A stretch of DNA of 64,000 bases from an uncultured Alphaproteobacteria bacterium (GCA_949286245.1 CASECF010000039.1:6469-70468); one strand, 5' to 3'. Numbered from the stretch's first letter, positions 57,271 through 62,550 are shown. Made by a program: numbers and translations. The notes: generated by a model from the letters alone, not told the origin.

Positions 57271-58095
57271 TTATTTCAGTTTATTGTATTCTGCGTCTGT
57301 GATGGGCTCTTGCCAAATATTCTCGGTTTCTTCTCCTTCTATTTCAATAGCTAAATGAGAAAACCATGAATCCGGTGCGGCGCCATGCCAATGTTTGACA
57401 TTGGCCGGAATATGAATGACTGTTCCCTCGTTGATCTCAATTGGTTCCTTGCCCCATTCTTGATAATATCCTCTGCCACCGATTCCGATCAGCATTTGTC
57501 CACCCCCGGATTTTGCTTGATGGATATGCCAATTATTCCGACATCTCGGTTCAAATGTCACATTAAATATTTTAACTTGTCGATCAGAAACAGGAGATAG
57601 ATAACTTTGTCCGATAAAGTATTGGGCATAGGCCTTATTTGGCTCACCGATCGGGAACATTAACTTCTTTTGGTGCTTTTCTTCATCTGTTAATGCCGGT
57701 GTATCTTCATTCCAAACCTCTTTAGCCAAGTTAAAAACAGCCCAAGCTTTTGGCCAACCGGCATAAAACGCTGTATGTGTTATAATTGTTGCTATTTCTT
57801 CTTTGCTTACACCATGATCTTTAGCATTTTTTAAATGATATATTAAAGAGTTGTCTGTTATGCCCATTGACATCAACGAAACAACAGTGATAATAGAGCG
57901 TGTTTTGAGGTCAATATCTTTGTTGTTCCAATTTTCTCCAAATAAAATATCATCATTGTAATGAGCAAAATCCGGTGCAAAAGATCCTAGTTGATCTTTT
58001 CCCGCCGTTTGTGTGATTTTTTCAGCCATAGCATTTCCTCCGTAAATGAATAAACATGTTGTTAGTAATAAAAGTTTAGATAAATGTTTCATCAA
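57271..58095 (-). CDS. Secreted two-domain protein: carboxymuconolactone-decarboxylase (AhpD-like) domain plus C-terminal cupin domain
   Basis: Signal peptide; CMD-like helical N-half; cupin motifs (NNWHIHQ...GGGQMLIG, HIPANVKHWHGA). Confidence 0.6.
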   Translation of the reverse strand: MMKHLSKLLLLTTCLFIYGGNAMAEKITQTAGKDQLGSFAPDFAHYNDDILFGENWNNKDIDLKTRSIITVVSLMSMGITDNSLIYHLKNAKDHGVSKEEIATIITHTAFYAGWPKAWAVFNLAKEVWNEDTPALTDEEKHQKKLMFPIGEPNKAYAQYFIGQSYLSPVSDRQVKIFNVTFEPRCRNNWHIHQAKSGGGQMLIGIGGRGYYQEWGKEPIEINEGTVIHIPANVKHWHGAAPDSWFSHLAIEIEGEETENIWQEPITDAEYNKLK

Positions 58096-59213
58096 TTTTT
58101 CCTTTCAATATTGACAATAACAAATTCGGATTTTGTACCGGTTTTAAATTTAATCGCCCAAGAAGAAATACCGGAAGTGACGATAAAATGTGTATTTTCT
58201 CTTTTTTCATAGCCATATGTCTTATCATTTGCCTTGATCCATTCACCAATTTTTGTTAGCGGCCATAACTGACCGCCGTGTGTGTGACCGGATAAAACCA
58301 AATTAATACCGGCTTTCTGTTGATTTTCATAATCGTTGGGTTGATGGTCAAGAACAATACTGAATTTATCGGGTTCAATTTGTTTAGCTAGTGTTGTCAT
58401 CGATAAACGATGGTTGCTTTTTTTATCGTGACCGGCGTCTTTGCGACCGATCAGATAAATTTGCCCGTTGAGAGCAACAACATTATCTTCTAAGACTTTC
58501 ACATTGTTTTTTTGTAATTCATTGATCAAGTCCGATTTGCTAAAACCTCGATAAGTTGAATCATAGTAGCCTTTATCATGATTGCCGAATACAAAATAAG
58601 TGCCAAACTTTGTTTTAAGTGAACTGAGCGCTTTTGTTGCGGCTAACATATCCGCTTTTGAGGTGTTGTCATCAACAAAATCTCCAATAATAAATACGGC
58701 CTCGGGATGATTTTCTTGTATTCTTTGAATATATTGAGAAAACTCCGTGCCGTCAAAAGTAGTTCCGATATGTGAATCTGCGAAAAAGGCAATTTTAAGG
58801 GGGGAGATGTCTTTGTCAGTATAAACAGTATATTCAGTCTGCCAAACATGGTGTGCTTGATGCCATCCAAAAGATAATAAGAGTGTACCAAGCATAAGTG
58901 CGCAAATCCCCGCATAATATGTTTGAAATTGAAATTTCCCTAAATAGGCAATAATCAGAAATATCAAATCACAGGCAATCCACACCATGCTAAAATAGAA
59001 CAGGCAAACCACGGCATTTGTCAGATTGAAACTCCAACATAATAGACAAAAGGCAAGGAAAACAATGAGATACCCCGAATTAAATTTTAACCTTGAGGCC
59101 TGATAAGACAGGTGCTGTACCAGTTGAAATTTACCGATTTGATGACCAAGATATAAAAAGCCGATTATTGTTATCAGTATCGTCACAATTAAAATAATGT
59201 ACCACATTCGCAT
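58092..59213 (-). CDS. Membrane-anchored metallophosphoesterase (calcineurin-like)
   Basis: About 4 N-terminal TM helices; motifs FFADSHIG, GDFVDD, GNHD, GHTHGGQ; stop overlaps the next gene start by 4 nt. Confidence 0.8.
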   Translation of the reverse strand: MRMWYIILIVTILITIIGFLYLGHQIGKFQLVQHLSYQASRLKFNSGYLIVFLAFCLLCWSFNLTNAVVCLFYFSMVWIACDLIFLIIAYLGKFQFQTYYAGICALMLGTLLLSFGWHQAHHVWQTEYTVYTDKDISPLKIAFFADSHIGTTFDGTEFSQYIQRIQENHPEAVFIIGDFVDDNTSKADMLAATKALSSLKTKFGTYFVFGNHDKGYYDSTYRGFSKSDLINELQKNNVKVLEDNVVALNGQIYLIGRKDAGHDKKSNHRLSMTTLAKQIEPDKFSIVLDHQPNDYENQQKAGINLVLSGHTHGGQLWPLTKIGEWIKANDKTYGYEKRENTHFIVTSGISSWAIKFKTGTKSEFVIVNIERKN

Positions 59214-59226
59214 TTTATTAAGCCCT

Positions 59227-60159: not shown

Positions 60160-61911
60160 TTATAATAATTTTCTTAAATCTTCACAAATAAGCCGTGGTG
60201 TTAAATGATAGCGTTCGTAAAGCTCGTTTATTGAAATACGATCCGTAAATTCTTTGGTGGCTCCGTAATTTAAAACTTTCATATCAGAATCCCCGTAAAA
60301 GGCGGAAACTTTTTCTCCAAAACCACCGGCCAAACATCCGTCCTCCAAAGTAATCACGATGTCATGATCTTTTTTAAGCCTGTTTAATAATTCTTGATCT
60401 AGGCCTGATAGATAAACCGGATTGATGAGGGTTGCGTTAATTCCGAATTGATTTTTGATTTCCTCTCGAACGGTTTTTGCTAAATGATAGAAATTGCCTG
60501 CGCCGATTATGGCAATTTTTTGACCGGTATGAGTCACCTTCGATTGATTAATCTTGCCATAATCAGTTGTGTCTGTTTCACCCGATGAAATAACCGGTCC
60601 GAACGGTGCTCGGATAACCACCGGATGAGATTTCTGTTCAAGAGACCAATCCAGCATAGCCAAATATTCCTCTTTACATGTCGGAGCTAAGAAGACGATA
60701 TTCGGAATATTGGAAATAAGCGGAATATCAAATATGGTTAGGTGAGTGATGTCGTTTGGTCCGATAGCTCCCCAACAGATCAAAATGGTCGCAGGAGCCT
60801 TGTTGATGGCTAAGTCTTGAGACAGTTGATCATATGCTCGTTGTATGAAAGAACTATGGACCGCTAAAACCGGTTTGGCACCGTTTATGGCCAGACCTGA
60901 GACATATCCGACTGCATGTTGTTCGGCTATGTCAACATCTGTGTAATTTTCTCCCATTTTTTGGCGAAATGCCGGTGTGAATCCACAAATTCCTGGGGTT
61001 GCCGGAGAGACGGCAATGACGCTTTTATCCTTCTCTTTTTTGTTTAAAAGGAACTGTGTCATCAATGTATCGTAGGTTTCTCCGCTCTCATAGATTTTTC
61101 CGCTGGCAGTACCTGCTAAAATCCAATGATAGGATTCTTTATCCTCTTCTGCAGCTTTAAATCCTTTTCCTTTGAGCGTGTGTATGTGTAATACGGTAGG
61201 TCTTTGTGTGTCTTTTATTTTCTGCAAAGCTGAAATTAACGCCTTGATATTATTACCTTCTTCTACATAAAAGTAGTCATATCCCATGGCTTTGAATATA
61301 TTTTGATGAGAGGTTCCGTTAGTTGCTCGAAGATCGGCTAATCCTTTAAACAAGCCGCCGTTTGTCGGGGCTATTGACATTTCATTATCGTTGACAATGA
61401 CGATGAAATTAGAGTTTAAAACGGCCGCGTTATTTAATCCTTCAAATGCTTCTCCGCCGGAAAGCGAACCATCTCCGATAATGGCAATCACATTATATTT
61501 TTCTTTCTGTAAATCTCGCGCTTTAGCCATACCGCAAGCCAAACTGATCGATGTAGAAGTATGCCCTATCGTGAAAAAATCATGCTCACTTTCATGTTGA
61601 TTGGTGTATCCCGTGATTTCCATATGATGGAGGGGATCCAAAAAGGCTCCTTTTCGACCGGTTAGCATTTTGTGTGGATAGCATTGATGTGATACATCAA
61701 AAATCAATTTGTCCTTGGGCGAATCGAAAACGTAATGGAGCGCAATTGTTGCCTCAACAATCCCAAGATCCGGACCAAAATGTCCTCCGATTGTATTAGA
61801 GTGATTGATAACTCCAAATCGAATATCGGATGCCAAGCTTTCTAATTCTTGAATAGACATCTTTTTGATATCTGATGGTTTTTCTACTCGATCTAAAAAT
61901 AATGTTTCCAT
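60160..61911 (-). CDS. 1-deoxy-D-xylulose-5-phosphate synthase-like TPP-dependent enzyme (DXS/transketolase family)
   Basis: 583 aa; GGHFGPDLG and DVSHQCYPHKMLTGR (DXS signature GHxGxxLG...HQxYxHKxLTGR), TPP motif GDGSLSGGEAFEGLNNA; unclear whether it is the housekeeping dxs. Confidence 0.65.
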   Translation of the reverse strand: METLFLDRVEKPSDIKKMSIQELESLASDIRFGVINHSNTIGGHFGPDLGIVEATIALHYVFDSPKDKLIFDVSHQCYPHKMLTGRKGAFLDPLHHMEITGYTNQHESEHDFFTIGHTSTSISLACGMAKARDLQKEKYNVIAIIGDGSLSGGEAFEGLNNAAVLNSNFIVIVNDNEMSIAPTNGGLFKGLADLRATNGTSHQNIFKAMGYDYFYVEEGNNIKALISALQKIKDTQRPTVLHIHTLKGKGFKAAEEDKESYHWILAGTASGKIYESGETYDTLMTQFLLNKKEKDKSVIAVSPATPGICGFTPAFRQKMGENYTDVDIAEQHAVGYVSGLAINGAKPVLAVHSSFIQRAYDQLSQDLAINKAPATILICWGAIGPNDITHLTIFDIPLISNIPNIVFLAPTCKEEYLAMLDWSLEQKSHPVVIRAPFGPVISSGETDTTDYGKINQSKVTHTGQKIAIIGAGNFYHLAKTVREEIKNQFGINATLINPVYLSGLDQELLNRLKKDHDIVITLEDGCLAGGFGEKVSAFYGDSDMKVLNYGATKEFTDRISINELYERYHLTPRLICEDLRKLL

Positions 61912-61920
61912 TTTGACCTC

Positions 61921-62550
61921 CTATAATGATATGTTGTTCTTTAATAATTCAAAAATAGTTTCATACACAAAATCATATACACGCTTAATCGGAAAATGAA
62001 TGCCAACCGCATTCATGGCCTCTTTTTGTTTTTGTGTCACATTTACATAGGGATACAGTCCAAACATAAACGGGAAAAAAATGTATATAAATCGATCAAT
62101 CTGTTTTTCGTTCATGTTCGGGAAAAATTTTCTTAGAAGATCAGATACCAAATCCAGAGCTCTTTTGTACTCTTTTTTAAATTCTGTTAACTCCTCTAAT
62201 GAACAATTTCTTTCTAAATCATAAATATTCATGGAAAGAAGCTTTAGAAGAACAGGACGATTCTCAAGTGTCTTTGAAAATTGATCCGAAAAATCTTCTA
62301 AAGACAAAATGTGATTCTGATCTAAAATGCTCTTCATTTCATCACACCAATAAATATACTCTTCACGAAAAATTTCTAAAAAAATACTTTCTTTTGTCTG
62401 GAAATAGTTATAAATCGACGGTCTTGAAAAACTGGTATAAGTGCTGATGGCTTTGATTGTTATTTCTTGAAAGCCGATTTTTTGATATAATTCTCGGCAA
62501 GCTTTTATAATTTCTGATTTTCGTTGATCTTGATTTTGGGATAAGGACAT
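61921..62550 (-). CDS. TetR/AcrR-family transcriptional regulator
   Basis: N-terminal HTH (IIKACRELYQKIGFQEITIKAISTYTSFSRPSIYNYF); ORF track start 62613 runs through the operator; MSLSQ start at 62550 with GGAG RBS preferred. Confidence 0.75.
   Translation of the reverse strand: MSLSQNQDQRKSEIIKACRELYQKIGFQEITIKAISTYTSFSRPSIYNYFQTKESIFLEIFREEYIYWCDEMKSILDQNHILSLEDFSDQFSKTLENRPVLLKLLSMNIYDLERNCSLEELTEFKKEYKRALDLVSDLLRKFFPNMNEKQIDRFIYIFFPFMFGLYPYVNVTQKQKEAMNAVGIHFPIKRVYDFVYETIFELLKNNISL

Follow-up and report, generated by a model that had tools for sequence, protein, structure and literature searches.

The 64,000-nt stretch of an uncultured gut bacterium of the Alphaproteobacteria analysed here (GCA_949286245.1 CASECF010000039.1:6469-70468, the window) carries a six-gene operon, the second gene of which encodes a member of the DXPS-like subfamily of thiamine diphosphate (ThDP)-dependent enzymes (NCBIfam NF008968/PRK12315). 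The residues that hold D-glyceraldehyde 3-phosphate (D-GAP) in canonical DXS are replaced in this protein. Judged from its sequence, the enzyme is probably not an isoprenoid DXS and has a different job linked to chemical stress. The explanation that we favour, and hold to be moderately probable, is a horizontally acquired, TetR-repressed and inducible stress or detoxification operon, whose enzyme would ligate a C2 unit to a non-phosphorylated acceptor.

Operon structure and candidate operators

Six minus-strand ORFs (Table 1) lie at the positions given in an earlier sequence-only reading, and profile matches to Pfam and NCBIfam models confirm its domain assignments. The exception is the fourth gene, which had been labelled hypothetical: the ORF stands but the label does not, since its product has a cyclophilin-like match and a signal peptide. 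The 4-nt overlaps and gaps below 15 nt described before are also borne out. The flavodoxin stop and the cyclophilin-like start overlap at 59652-59655 (ATGA), the phosphoesterase stop and the CMD-cupin start at 58092-58095, and the remaining intergenic gaps are 9, 13 and 13 nt. Four related loci from gut MAGs of Alphaproteobacteria have the same gene order at 74-95% protein identity, as does one identical Logan contig, so the arrangement is not a product of chance. Gene content varies among close relatives: the cyclophilin-like gene is missing from loci L001, L002 and L003, and L001 is also without the phosphoesterase gene.

Table 1. Features of the operon and its flank (positions in the window)
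Feature	Position	Strand	Remarks
TetR-family regulator (TetR_N + TetR_C_34)	61921-62550 (62613 with TTG start)	-	first operon gene; PF00440 36 bits, PF17929 59 bits
DXPS-like ThDP-dependent enzyme, 583 aa	60160-61911	-	NF008968; PDB 9KPQ match
Flavodoxin_4-type predicted FMN protein, 164 aa	59652-60146	-	PF12682; no signal peptide
Cyclophilin-like protein (Cyclophil_like2), 142 aa	59227-59655	-	PF18050, 98 bits; N-terminal Sec-type signal peptide
Metallophosphoesterase, 373 aa	58092-59213	-	predicted membrane-anchored; about 4 N-terminal hydrophobic helices
CMD (AhpD-like) + cupin fusion, 274 aa	57271-58095	-	signal peptide; predicted secreted
tRNA-Met(CAT), flanking	56771-56848	+	convergent with operon, 422 bp from operon end
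Candidate operator O1	62600-62612	-	perfect 13-bp palindrome TGACACCGTGTCA; contains TTGACA -35-like hexamer
Candidate operator O2	62566-62578	-	second identical TGACACCGTGTCA palindrome, 34 bp from O1, directly 5' of TetR start codon

The regulator combines an N-terminal TetR HTH with a ligand-binding C-terminal domain (PF00440, PF17929). Two identical palindromes precede its gene. The palindrome count in the window is 5 matches against 0.43 expected, a number reached in none of 100 shuffles, and the perfect 13-bp palindromes of O1 and O2 were not found elsewhere within the 64 kb. An identical pair lies 5' of the TetR gene in L001, L002 and L082; in the homologous clusters of L001 and L002 the DXS-like protein is 79-80% identical to that of the window. 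This conserved pair supports a single self-repressed operon and, together with the overlapping and tightly spaced genes, agrees with the co-transcription under TetR that had been predicted. The ATG at 62550, already chosen in the sequence-only reading, is preceded by a GGAGA Shine-Dalgarno sequence and is likely the TetR start. A mechanical call of a TTG start at 62613 was rejected because both operators would fall within the TetR ORF. A weak -10 element in the putative promoter counts against this picture. We propose a chromosomal accessory operon that would be repressed by its own first gene. TetR would most likely bind the two palindromes, which coincide in part with the promoter and the transcript's 5' end, and a small-molecule inducer would release it.

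The earlier suggestion of a tRNA-linked island found no support. No integrase or recombinase ORF is present at 55000-64000, no att-like direct repeat of the tRNA gene was found within 56700-64000, and the GC content of the cluster (37.1%) is not shifted from that of the remaining window (37.5%). The location of the cluster does vary among relatives: it occupies the same site in L050 as in the window and adjoins a tRNA-Ser in L001, and the flanks of the L001-L003 clusters have no match in the 64-kb window. The tRNA-Met gene is listed in Table 1 as a neighbour, not as a member of the system.

Residues and relatives of the DXPS-like enzyme

The window protein was aligned with 80 gut MAG members and nine cultured members of the subfamily (90 sequences), and with eight canonical DXS from Proteobacteria, Firmicutes, Bacteroidota, Fusobacteria, Actinobacteria and Mollicutes for comparison. 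Residues for binding ThDP and activating pyruvate are kept in the window protein, namely H44, H75, G146-D147-G148, N176, H262, E330, R358 and H390 (E. coli H49, H80, GDG151-153, N181, H299, E370, R398 and H431), and are conserved in 79-80 of the 80 relatives. The positions scored for the second substrate were, in E. coli numbering, R420, R478 and Y392 of the D-GAP pocket and the network residue R99. The first three form a conserved GAP binding pocket, and the R478A variant has a Km(D-GAP) of 1400 uM (PMC11019550). The window protein has L94 (Ec R99), H352 (Ec Y392), W380 (Ec R420) and F437 (Ec R478) instead. Arg is absent from positions 99, 420 and 478 in all 80 gut MAG and all nine cultured members (0/90 with Arg), with usually hydrophobic or aromatic replacements. 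Tyr392 is missing in 80/80 MAG members and retained in 4/9 cultured ones, a loss in 86/90 overall. All four positions are kept in 8/8 canonical DXS, with R or K at 478.

As the pocket that holds the phosphate is lost, a non-phosphorylated acceptor is most likely. The enzyme would activate and decarboxylate pyruvate or a similar 2-oxo acid on ThDP. With Leu, His, Trp and Phe in place of the Arg/Tyr pocket for the phosphate of D-GAP, the two-carbon unit would most likely pass to a non-phosphorylated acceptor, probably of a hydrophobic or aromatic aldehyde type, and the enzyme would most likely supply no DXP for isoprenoids. A subfamily-invariant Lys-Glu pair (K258-E259 in the window protein), four residues N-terminal to the catalytic His262, could in principle be a substitute phosphate contact, which would count against this reading of the pocket.

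Subfamily membership is clear from the NF008968 score of 859.2 bits (cut-off 510), with the match spanning residues 5-582 of 583. In a neighbour-joining tree the DXPS-like subfamily is monophyletic and separate from canonical DXS. Its members share at least 43% identity with one another and no more than 38% with canonical DXS; for the window protein the ranges are 45-80% and 25-36%. The window protein groups with Akkermansia and Gastranaerophilales sequences and shares just 34% identity with the dxs of Azospirillum, itself an alphaproteobacterium; this phylogeny indicates horizontal acquisition of the cluster. The phylogeny and the replaced pocket thus bear out the earlier view of a divergent DXS paralogue outside the isoprenoid context. 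No second dxs lies within the 64-kb window.

An alternative is that the enzyme is a true DXP synthase isozyme, a short-form DXS that binds D-GAP via other residues and makes DXP for isoprenoids, thiamine or PLP under TetR-sensed conditions. Its fold is DXS-like (TM 0.79-0.86 to canonical DXPS structures), the pyruvate/ThDP residues are all retained, K258/E259 near H262 could compensate for the lost contacts, and NCBI annotates every subfamily member as DXS. The score to the 'equivalog' DXS model NF003933, 631.8 bits over a cut-off of 395, also counts against a non-DXS reading, whereas TIGR00204 is missed (451.4, cut-off 465.95). We consider this isozyme unlikely in view of the loss of the three Arg in 90/90 and of Tyr392 in most members, and of where the genes occur. 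Subfamily members are found on C. acetobutylicum pSOL1 and on plasmids of E. faecium, L. fermentum and L. amylolyticus, and Lactobacillales are not known to use any isoprenoid pathway but the mevalonate one. In Fusobacterium vincentii a subfamily copy and a canonical dxs share one 2.1-Mb record. Isoprenoid, thiamine or PLP genes were not seen beside the gene in any of about 90 loci. Plasmid carriage, the co-occurrence in F. vincentii and the position of the window protein in the tree all support an accessory nature.

The known systems nearest to the window protein include PDB 9KPQ, released 2025-08-20 under the title 'A ThDP-dependent enzyme belonging to the DXPS-like subfamily'. The two are 56% identical over the full length, with a TM-score of 0.92 and the same length class. 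Both have Trp at Ec 420 and no Arg at 99 or 478; they differ at Ec 392 (Tyr in 9KPQ, His in the window protein) and at Ec 478 (Ala and Phe, respectively). Canonical DXPS (E. coli Dxs, D. radiodurans DXPS; EC 2.2.1.7) shares the three-domain fold, the ThDP/Mg motif GDG...N and the catalytic residues. The window protein is only 31-36% identical to it (25% to Spiroplasma) and differs, besides the four replaced residues, in a 32-residue deletion (Ec 206-237 loop) and a D427 loop shorter by one residue. Canonical dxs lies near ispA/xseB, ispG or similar, while the window gene lies in a TetR stress-type operon. C. acetobutylicum pSOL1 CA_RS19740, which we take to be the old tag CA_P0106, and plasmid-borne Firmicutes and Bacteroides 'DXS' genes belong to the same subfamily (45-57% identity). 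They are likewise carried on accessory replicons, with a divergent stress-type MerR/NmlR-like regulator or aldo/keto reductase and flavodoxin neighbours, but most of them stand alone beside a MerR, PadR or ArsR gene, and a six-gene TetR operon like that of the window does not occur among them.

Partner proteins and conserved neighbourhood

Neighbours were counted within 3 kb of the DXPS-like gene (424 kb in total) and at 3-10 kb (774 kb in total). FMN_red occurs 16 times nearby against once farther away, Flavodoxin_4 13 against 2, CMD/cupin 10 against 0 and MerR 11 against 0, and the association with these families extends across phyla. The neighbouring MerRs best match NmlR, and DJ-1/PfpI and aldo/keto reductases are found across the loci. 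In NmlR/AdhR-type carbonyl-stress regulons a small regulator governs enzymes that detoxify aldehydes and electrophiles. The sister-lineage loci resemble such regulons in these neighbours; the window operon differs in having a TetR-family regulator rather than MerR and no alcohol dehydrogenase. About half of the 80 loci have no stress-module neighbour, which counts against the stress explanation.

The flavodoxin matches PF12682 with 176.5 bits over residues 8-160, and its nearest PDB entries, 3KLB (E = 8.6e-39), 4J8P and 4ICI, all have no assigned function. A PDB sequence search gave no relative of the cyclophilin-like protein. The metallophosphoesterase has weak YaeI-like and LpxG-like matches. 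For the cupin half of the CMD-cupin, the best NCBIfam match is (R)-mandelonitrile lyase at 100.6 bits, below the cut-off of 140. Export signals are predicted on all CMD-cupins. A signal peptide, membrane anchor or Tat motif is also predicted on the flavoprotein encoded next to the ThDP enzyme in most other lineages, but not on the ThDP enzyme itself. These signals favour co-regulation over one linear cytoplasmic pathway. The flavodoxin, CMD-cupin, cyclophilin-like protein and phosphoesterase would then be jointly regulated components of a reactive carbonyl, redox or xenobiotic stress response and not successive steps of a single cytoplasmic pathway. The dedicated flavodoxin might still feed a redox pathway, as had been suggested; given the export signals in other lineages, the link to flavoproteins may be no more than regulatory.

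A direct link would make the ThDP enzyme and flavodoxin an iron-sulfur-free 2-oxoacid:flavodoxin oxidoreductase, in which FMN would oxidise the enamine and acetyl-ThDP would be hydrolysed, so that gut anaerobes under oxidative stress could obtain reducing power or acetate from pyruvate by an oxygen-tolerant route. In 24/80 loci, spread over several phyla, a flavoprotein gene lies within three genes on either side, and the window has one directly adjacent. Trp at 420 with Phe/Tyr at 478 occurs in 12/13 Flavodoxin_4-linked enzymes, and Rex and Isf-like FMN_red are among the neighbours. E. coli DXPS can also reduce O2 following pyruvate decarboxylation. We regard this reading as very improbable: the Trp/Phe correlation is confounded by phylogeny, the differing compartments of flavoprotein and enzyme make direct electron transfer unlikely in most other lineages, and we know of no precedent in the DXS/transketolase family.

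The variable presence of the cyclophilin-like and phosphoesterase genes and the different predicted compartments would suit a mosaic of unrelated co-transcribed accessory genes, with the DXS-like gene as a decaying or moonlighting duplicate. We regard this too as very improbable, since that ORF is intact, its catalytic residues are conserved across the 90 sequences, and a trio of DXS-like, flavoprotein and CMD-cupin genes recurs in Alphaproteobacteria, Gastranaerophilales and the context of the abundant cluster P0086. Gene orders and flavoprotein families differ between these recurrences.

Significance for the subfamily

The DXPS-like subfamily itself is already known (NF008968, 9KPQ); the window adds a TetR-controlled version with operators, which is suited to inducer screening. 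The subfamily-wide loss of the D-GAP pocket, the linkage to flavoproteins, CMD-cupins and NmlR-like or TetR regulators, and plasmid carriage point to a distinct chemistry, which is probably stress-related. A far wider claim, which we think rather unlikely, is that the thousands of NF008968 'DXS' genes of gut bacteria form a new ThDP class working with flavoproteins and secreted mandelonitrile-lyase-like cupins. Through C2 ligation onto toxic, possibly aromatic, aldehydes or Fe-S-free electron transfer from pyruvate to flavodoxin, they would provide an unrecognised carbonyl or oxidative-stress defence of gut anaerobes that spread horizontally into Alphaproteobacteria. DXPS is an antibacterial target, so a GAP-independent paralogue matters for inhibitor selectivity and for a possible bypass of inhibition. 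Reconstructions of metabolism in gut bacteria, mevalonate-only lactobacilli and enterococci among them, would wrongly infer the entry step of the MEP pathway from these genes.

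A DXS homologue without the D-GAP pocket

The DXS homologue of the six-gene cluster scores 859 bits against the subfamily model NF008968/PRK12315 (NCBIfam, cut-off 510). It also passes NF003933 and fails TIGR00204 (451.4 vs a cut-off of 465.95). We aligned it with E. coli Dxs (from NC_000913.3), 80 homologues from gut MAGs, nine from cultured bacteria and seven more canonical DXS (the F. vincentii second copy and those of Listeria, Parabacteroides, Monoglobus, Azospirillum, Streptomyces and Spiroplasma). The residues that bind thiamine diphosphate (ThDP) and activate pyruvate are invariant in both groups (H49, H80, GDG151-153, N181, H299, E370, F395, R398 and H431, E. 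coli numbering), and this apparatus is intact in the window protein. The pocket for D-glyceraldehyde 3-phosphate (D-GAP) is lost. EcR420, R478 and Y392 were described as the 'conserved GAP binding pocket', with a Km(D-GAP) of 1400 µM for R478A and a role given to R99 (PMC11019550); R99 belongs to an active-site network gating decarboxylation (PMC12633525). All eight canonical enzymes keep R99, Y392, R420 and R/K478. R99, R420 and R478 are absent in 90 of 90 subfamily members. These have Leu, Glu or Asp at position 99 and, mostly, Phe, Tyr, Ser, Ala or Thr at 478, and Trp occupies position 420 in 65 of the 80 MAG sequences. Y392 is missing from all 80 MAG sequences and kept in four of the nine cultured members. 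The window protein carries L94, H352, W380 and F437 at positions 99, 392, 420 and 478, respectively.

Judged by these residues, the window's homologue is predicted not to be a canonical DXS, failing at the substrate pocket that defines one. A true isozyme of DXS that binds GAP at a different site would fit the intact ThDP apparatus, and a subfamily-invariant Lys-Glu pair four residues ahead of the catalytic His could compensate for the lost pocket; the loss of all three arginines throughout the subfamily speaks against it, and we regard such an isozyme as unlikely. Two Gastranaerophilales-type MAGs each hold two DXPS-like paralogues (L014/L015 in RUG12020, L012/L058 in CAXHNV01), in which position 420 is Gly in one copy and Trp in the other, and the GAP-pocket arginines are in neither. 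No second DXS was found in the 64 kb by tblastn; the 614-aa ORF at 9864-11708 is UvrC.

In a neighbour-joining tree the subfamily forms a single clade, with at least 43% identity among its members and no more than 38% to canonical DXS. Tree neighbours of the window protein are an Akkermansia MAG and Gastranaerophilales, and its identity to Azospirillum dxs is only 34%. This phylogeny supports the paralogue suggested in the sequence-only reading, and one of a divergent type: the protein groups with the DXPS-like subfamily, apart from canonical DXS. Its AlphaFold model (pLDDT 87) best matches PDB 9KPQ (56% identity, TM 0.92), released on 2025-08-20 and entitled 'A ThDP-dependent enzyme belonging to the DXPS-like subfamily'. 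The title names the subfamily, which has therefore already been set apart by others; the enzyme is a further member of this flagged group (9KPQ; NF008968). Our literature searches found no paper on the DXPS-like subfamily, and a review mentions only canonical DXPS (PMC11331486).

Operon layout and predicted TetR operators

The ORF listing recovers the six consecutive minus-strand ORFs at the positions proposed earlier, and gene identities were assigned by Pfam and NCBIfam profile searches. All five named calls of that reading stand, and its 'hypothetical' protein is a Cyclophil_like2 protein. The operon is tightly packed, with 4-nt overlaps at two of the five junctions and gaps of 9-13 nt at the remaining three. 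Good Shine-Dalgarno sequences precede the DXS-like and flavodoxin genes, and GGAGA precedes the TetR ATG at 62550. PDB sequence searches gave no match for the cyclophilin-like protein or the metallophosphoesterase, and only uncharacterised or HTH-only relatives for TetR.

Features of the window with their coordinates, strand and basis of assignment
Feature	Coordinates	Strand	Basis
Ankyrin-repeat ORF	19563-21278
Ankyrin-repeat ORF	21993-24911
Ankyrin-repeat ORF	33476-35908
Ankyrin-repeat ORF	35992-37671
Ankyrin-repeat ORF	41675-43288
Ankyrin-repeat ORF	46127-47761
Ankyrin-repeat ORF	48978-50540
Ankyrin-repeat ORF	53219-54346
Sel1-repeat protein	55019-56059
tRNA-Met(CAT)	56771-56848	+	Rfam
CMD (PF02627) + cupin fusion, signal peptide, 274 aa	57271-58095	-	Pfam/NCBIfam
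Metallophosphoesterase, hydrophobic N-terminal helices, 373 aa	58092-59213	-	Pfam/NCBIfam
Cyclophil_like2 (PF18050), signal peptide, 142 aa	59227-59655	-	Pfam/NCBIfam
Flavodoxin_4 (PF12682, 176 bits), 164 aa	59652-60146	-	Pfam/NCBIfam
DXS homologue, 583 aa	60160-61911	-	Pfam/NCBIfam
TetR (TetR_N + TetR_C_34), 209-230 aa	61921-62550/62613	-	Pfam/NCBIfam

A perfect 13-bp palindrome, TGACACCGTGTCA, occurs twice in the 60 nt 5' of the TetR start (62600-62612 and 62566-62578), and a TTGACA hexamer lies inside the upstream copy. With up to two mismatches, the window holds five matches against 0.43 expected, and none of 100 shuffles contained five or more; beyond the operator region the sole match is a two-mismatch site at 9632. 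The predicted operators are conserved. In the homologous clusters L001 and L002, whose DXS-like proteins are 79-80% identical to the window's, the TetR gene is immediately preceded by the palindrome pair (TGACACNGTGTCA, 37 bp apart). The pair is also present in L082, a contig whose DXS-like protein is identical to the window's, and absent from the other 79 loci. A sigma-70 scan of the minus strand listed no promoter at the operators because the -10 element is weak, the -35 being perfect. The predicted operator pair together with a leading TetR gene matches the classical arrangement of a TetR operon under its own repression.

Downstream of the last gene we found no convincing intrinsic terminator, and the tRNA is the only Rfam match in 56000-64000, where riboswitches and other RNA elements were searched. 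Between tRNA-Met and the operon end, the 422-bp spacer contains a 27-nt unit repeated twice in tandem (57130-57183, 96% identical), and an AT-rich 10-nt inverted repeat (57170-57207) overlaps the end of its second copy. Divergent from the operon, 62773-63198 (+) encodes a protein of 141 aa whose N-terminus is signal-like and which consists of five or six tandem repeats of 20 aa (YGYNA[KR]GEYVPTxIGDDRVE), underlain by a 60-nt DNA period at 62783-63171; it has no family match and does not adjoin the cluster in L001 or L002.

Host and genomic location

Core genes (TolB, TolQ, RuvAB, DnaB, PgsA and UvrC) occupy the start of the window; a long array of at least eight large ankyrin-repeat ORFs comes next, and then one Sel1-repeat protein. 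The loci closest to the cluster come from gut MAGs labelled Alphaproteobacteria. The core genes and these relatives thus identify a low-GC (37.5%), host-associated alphaproteobacterium with the cluster on its chromosome, and the close packing of so many eukaryote-like repeat proteins suggests that this gut bacterium interacts with its host. A partial OmpA-domain ORF at 1-220 shares 41% identity over 73 aa with the OmpA-family gene at 56162-56710.

The suggestion of a tRNA-linked accessory island is not supported: neither an integrase nor a repeated tRNA end is present, and the cluster does not differ in GC (37.1% vs 37.5%). In L050 (94% identity) the cluster, tRNA-Met and OmpA are arranged as in the window; in L001 the cluster adjoins tRNA-Ser, and nothing in the window corresponds to the flanks of L001-L003. 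Relatives share the order TetR, DXS-like, flavodoxin, cyclophilin-like, phosphoesterase, CMD-cupin, with some genes lost. The cyclophilin-like gene is missing from L001, L002 and L003 and the phosphoesterase gene from L001, and L003 gave no TetR match. At 19016-20134, about 5 kb from its cluster, L002 has a second membrane metallophosphoesterase copy (49-52% identity to the window's).

Conserved neighbours, distribution and possible role

ORFs around the 80 homologues were clustered and annotated with Pfam and NCBIfam. The DXS-like gene has a conserved link to flavoproteins (FMN_red-type with an Isf-like Cys motif, and Flavodoxin_4), to CMD-cupins or cupins (best match (R)-mandelonitrile lyase, slightly under cut-off) and to stress regulators (MerR, best match NmlR). 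Hexapeptide acetyltransferases, alpha/beta hydrolases, DJ-1/PfpI and Rex also recur, and a flavoprotein gene lies within three genes on either side at 24 of the 80 loci. As an internal control, matches to HMMs made from the neighbours were counted up to 3 kb from the gene (424 kb in total) and at 3-10 kb (774 kb), giving 16 vs 1 for FMN_red, 13 vs 2 for Flavodoxin_4, 10 vs 0 for CMD/cupin and 11 vs 0 for MerR. A mosaic of functionally unrelated genes would suit the gene losses among relatives; with this clustering against it, we consider it improbable. In the abundant 582-aa cluster P0086 the genes run in the order DXS-like, an unknown gene, FMN_red, CMD-cupin, an aldo/keto reductase on the opposite strand and a second CMD protein. 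The CMD-cupin and DXS-like genes appear to have moved together, as suggested by a higher identity to Gastranaerophilales for the CMD-cupin (71-75%) than for the enzyme (64-66%).

All CMD-cupins and cupins have signal peptides, and most flavoprotein neighbours in other phyla have a signal peptide, membrane anchor or Tat motif. The ThDP enzyme never carries an export signal, and the window's flavodoxin lacks a signal peptide. Therefore, the neighbour link is best read as co-regulation in a response spanning cytoplasm and envelope. An iron-sulfur-free pyruvate:flavodoxin oxidoreductase would agree with the intact pyruvate apparatus and the adjacent flavodoxin gene; the exported flavoproteins elsewhere disagree with it, and we give it little credence. 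In L099, the FMN_red flavoprotein beside the DXPS-like gene (10880-11521) has a twin-arginine-like RRKF followed by a lipobox-like AGC, which suggests export and lipid anchoring.

The distribution of the subfamily is horizontal and accessory. In a tblastn survey of plasmids, members (45-57% identity) were clearly apart from canonical dxs (at most 36%). They occur on C. acetobutylicum pSOL1 with a divergent MerR, on one E. faecium plasmid, on an L. fermentum plasmid and on an L. amylolyticus plasmid, where the gene adjoins an aldo/keto reductase; further members are in B. finegoldii, Cetobacterium, Collinsella and Selenomonas pSRC1. Enterococci and lactobacilli are not known to use an isoprenoid route other than the mevalonate pathway. 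In F. vincentii, one 2.1-Mb record contains both a subfamily copy and a canonical one with all four pocket residues, and canonical genes lie in expected contexts: dxs-ispA (E. coli), ispG-dxs (Streptomyces) and xseAB-dxs (Spiroplasma). This distribution argues against a housekeeping role. On pSRC1 (L090, 4420-7488), budA (acetolactate decarboxylase) lies two genes upstream, divergent, of a truncated DXPS-like gene (495 aa), a hint that acetolactate or acetoin-type compounds might be the products of some members.

We propose that TetR would hold the six genes off until a small molecule binds. The enzyme would then decarboxylate pyruvate and join the resulting C2 unit to an aldehyde-type acceptor lacking a phosphate group, and the partner proteins would handle related electrophile or redox damage. 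A TetR-repressed stress operon with C2 ligation to a non-phosphorylated acceptor is, in our judgement, somewhat favoured. We are far less confident that the acceptor is a reactive or aromatic aldehyde, a choice guided by the Trp/Phe pocket, the NmlR-like regulators, DJ-1, the aldo/keto reductase and the mandelonitrile-lyase-like neighbours. Among the loci compared, TetR, operators and six genes together were not seen outside this alphaproteobacterial lineage, and the arrangement is one version of a module found widely among gut bacteria. The finding chiefly offers an annotation correction and a clear, testable functional lead for a large, uncharacterised enzyme subfamily.
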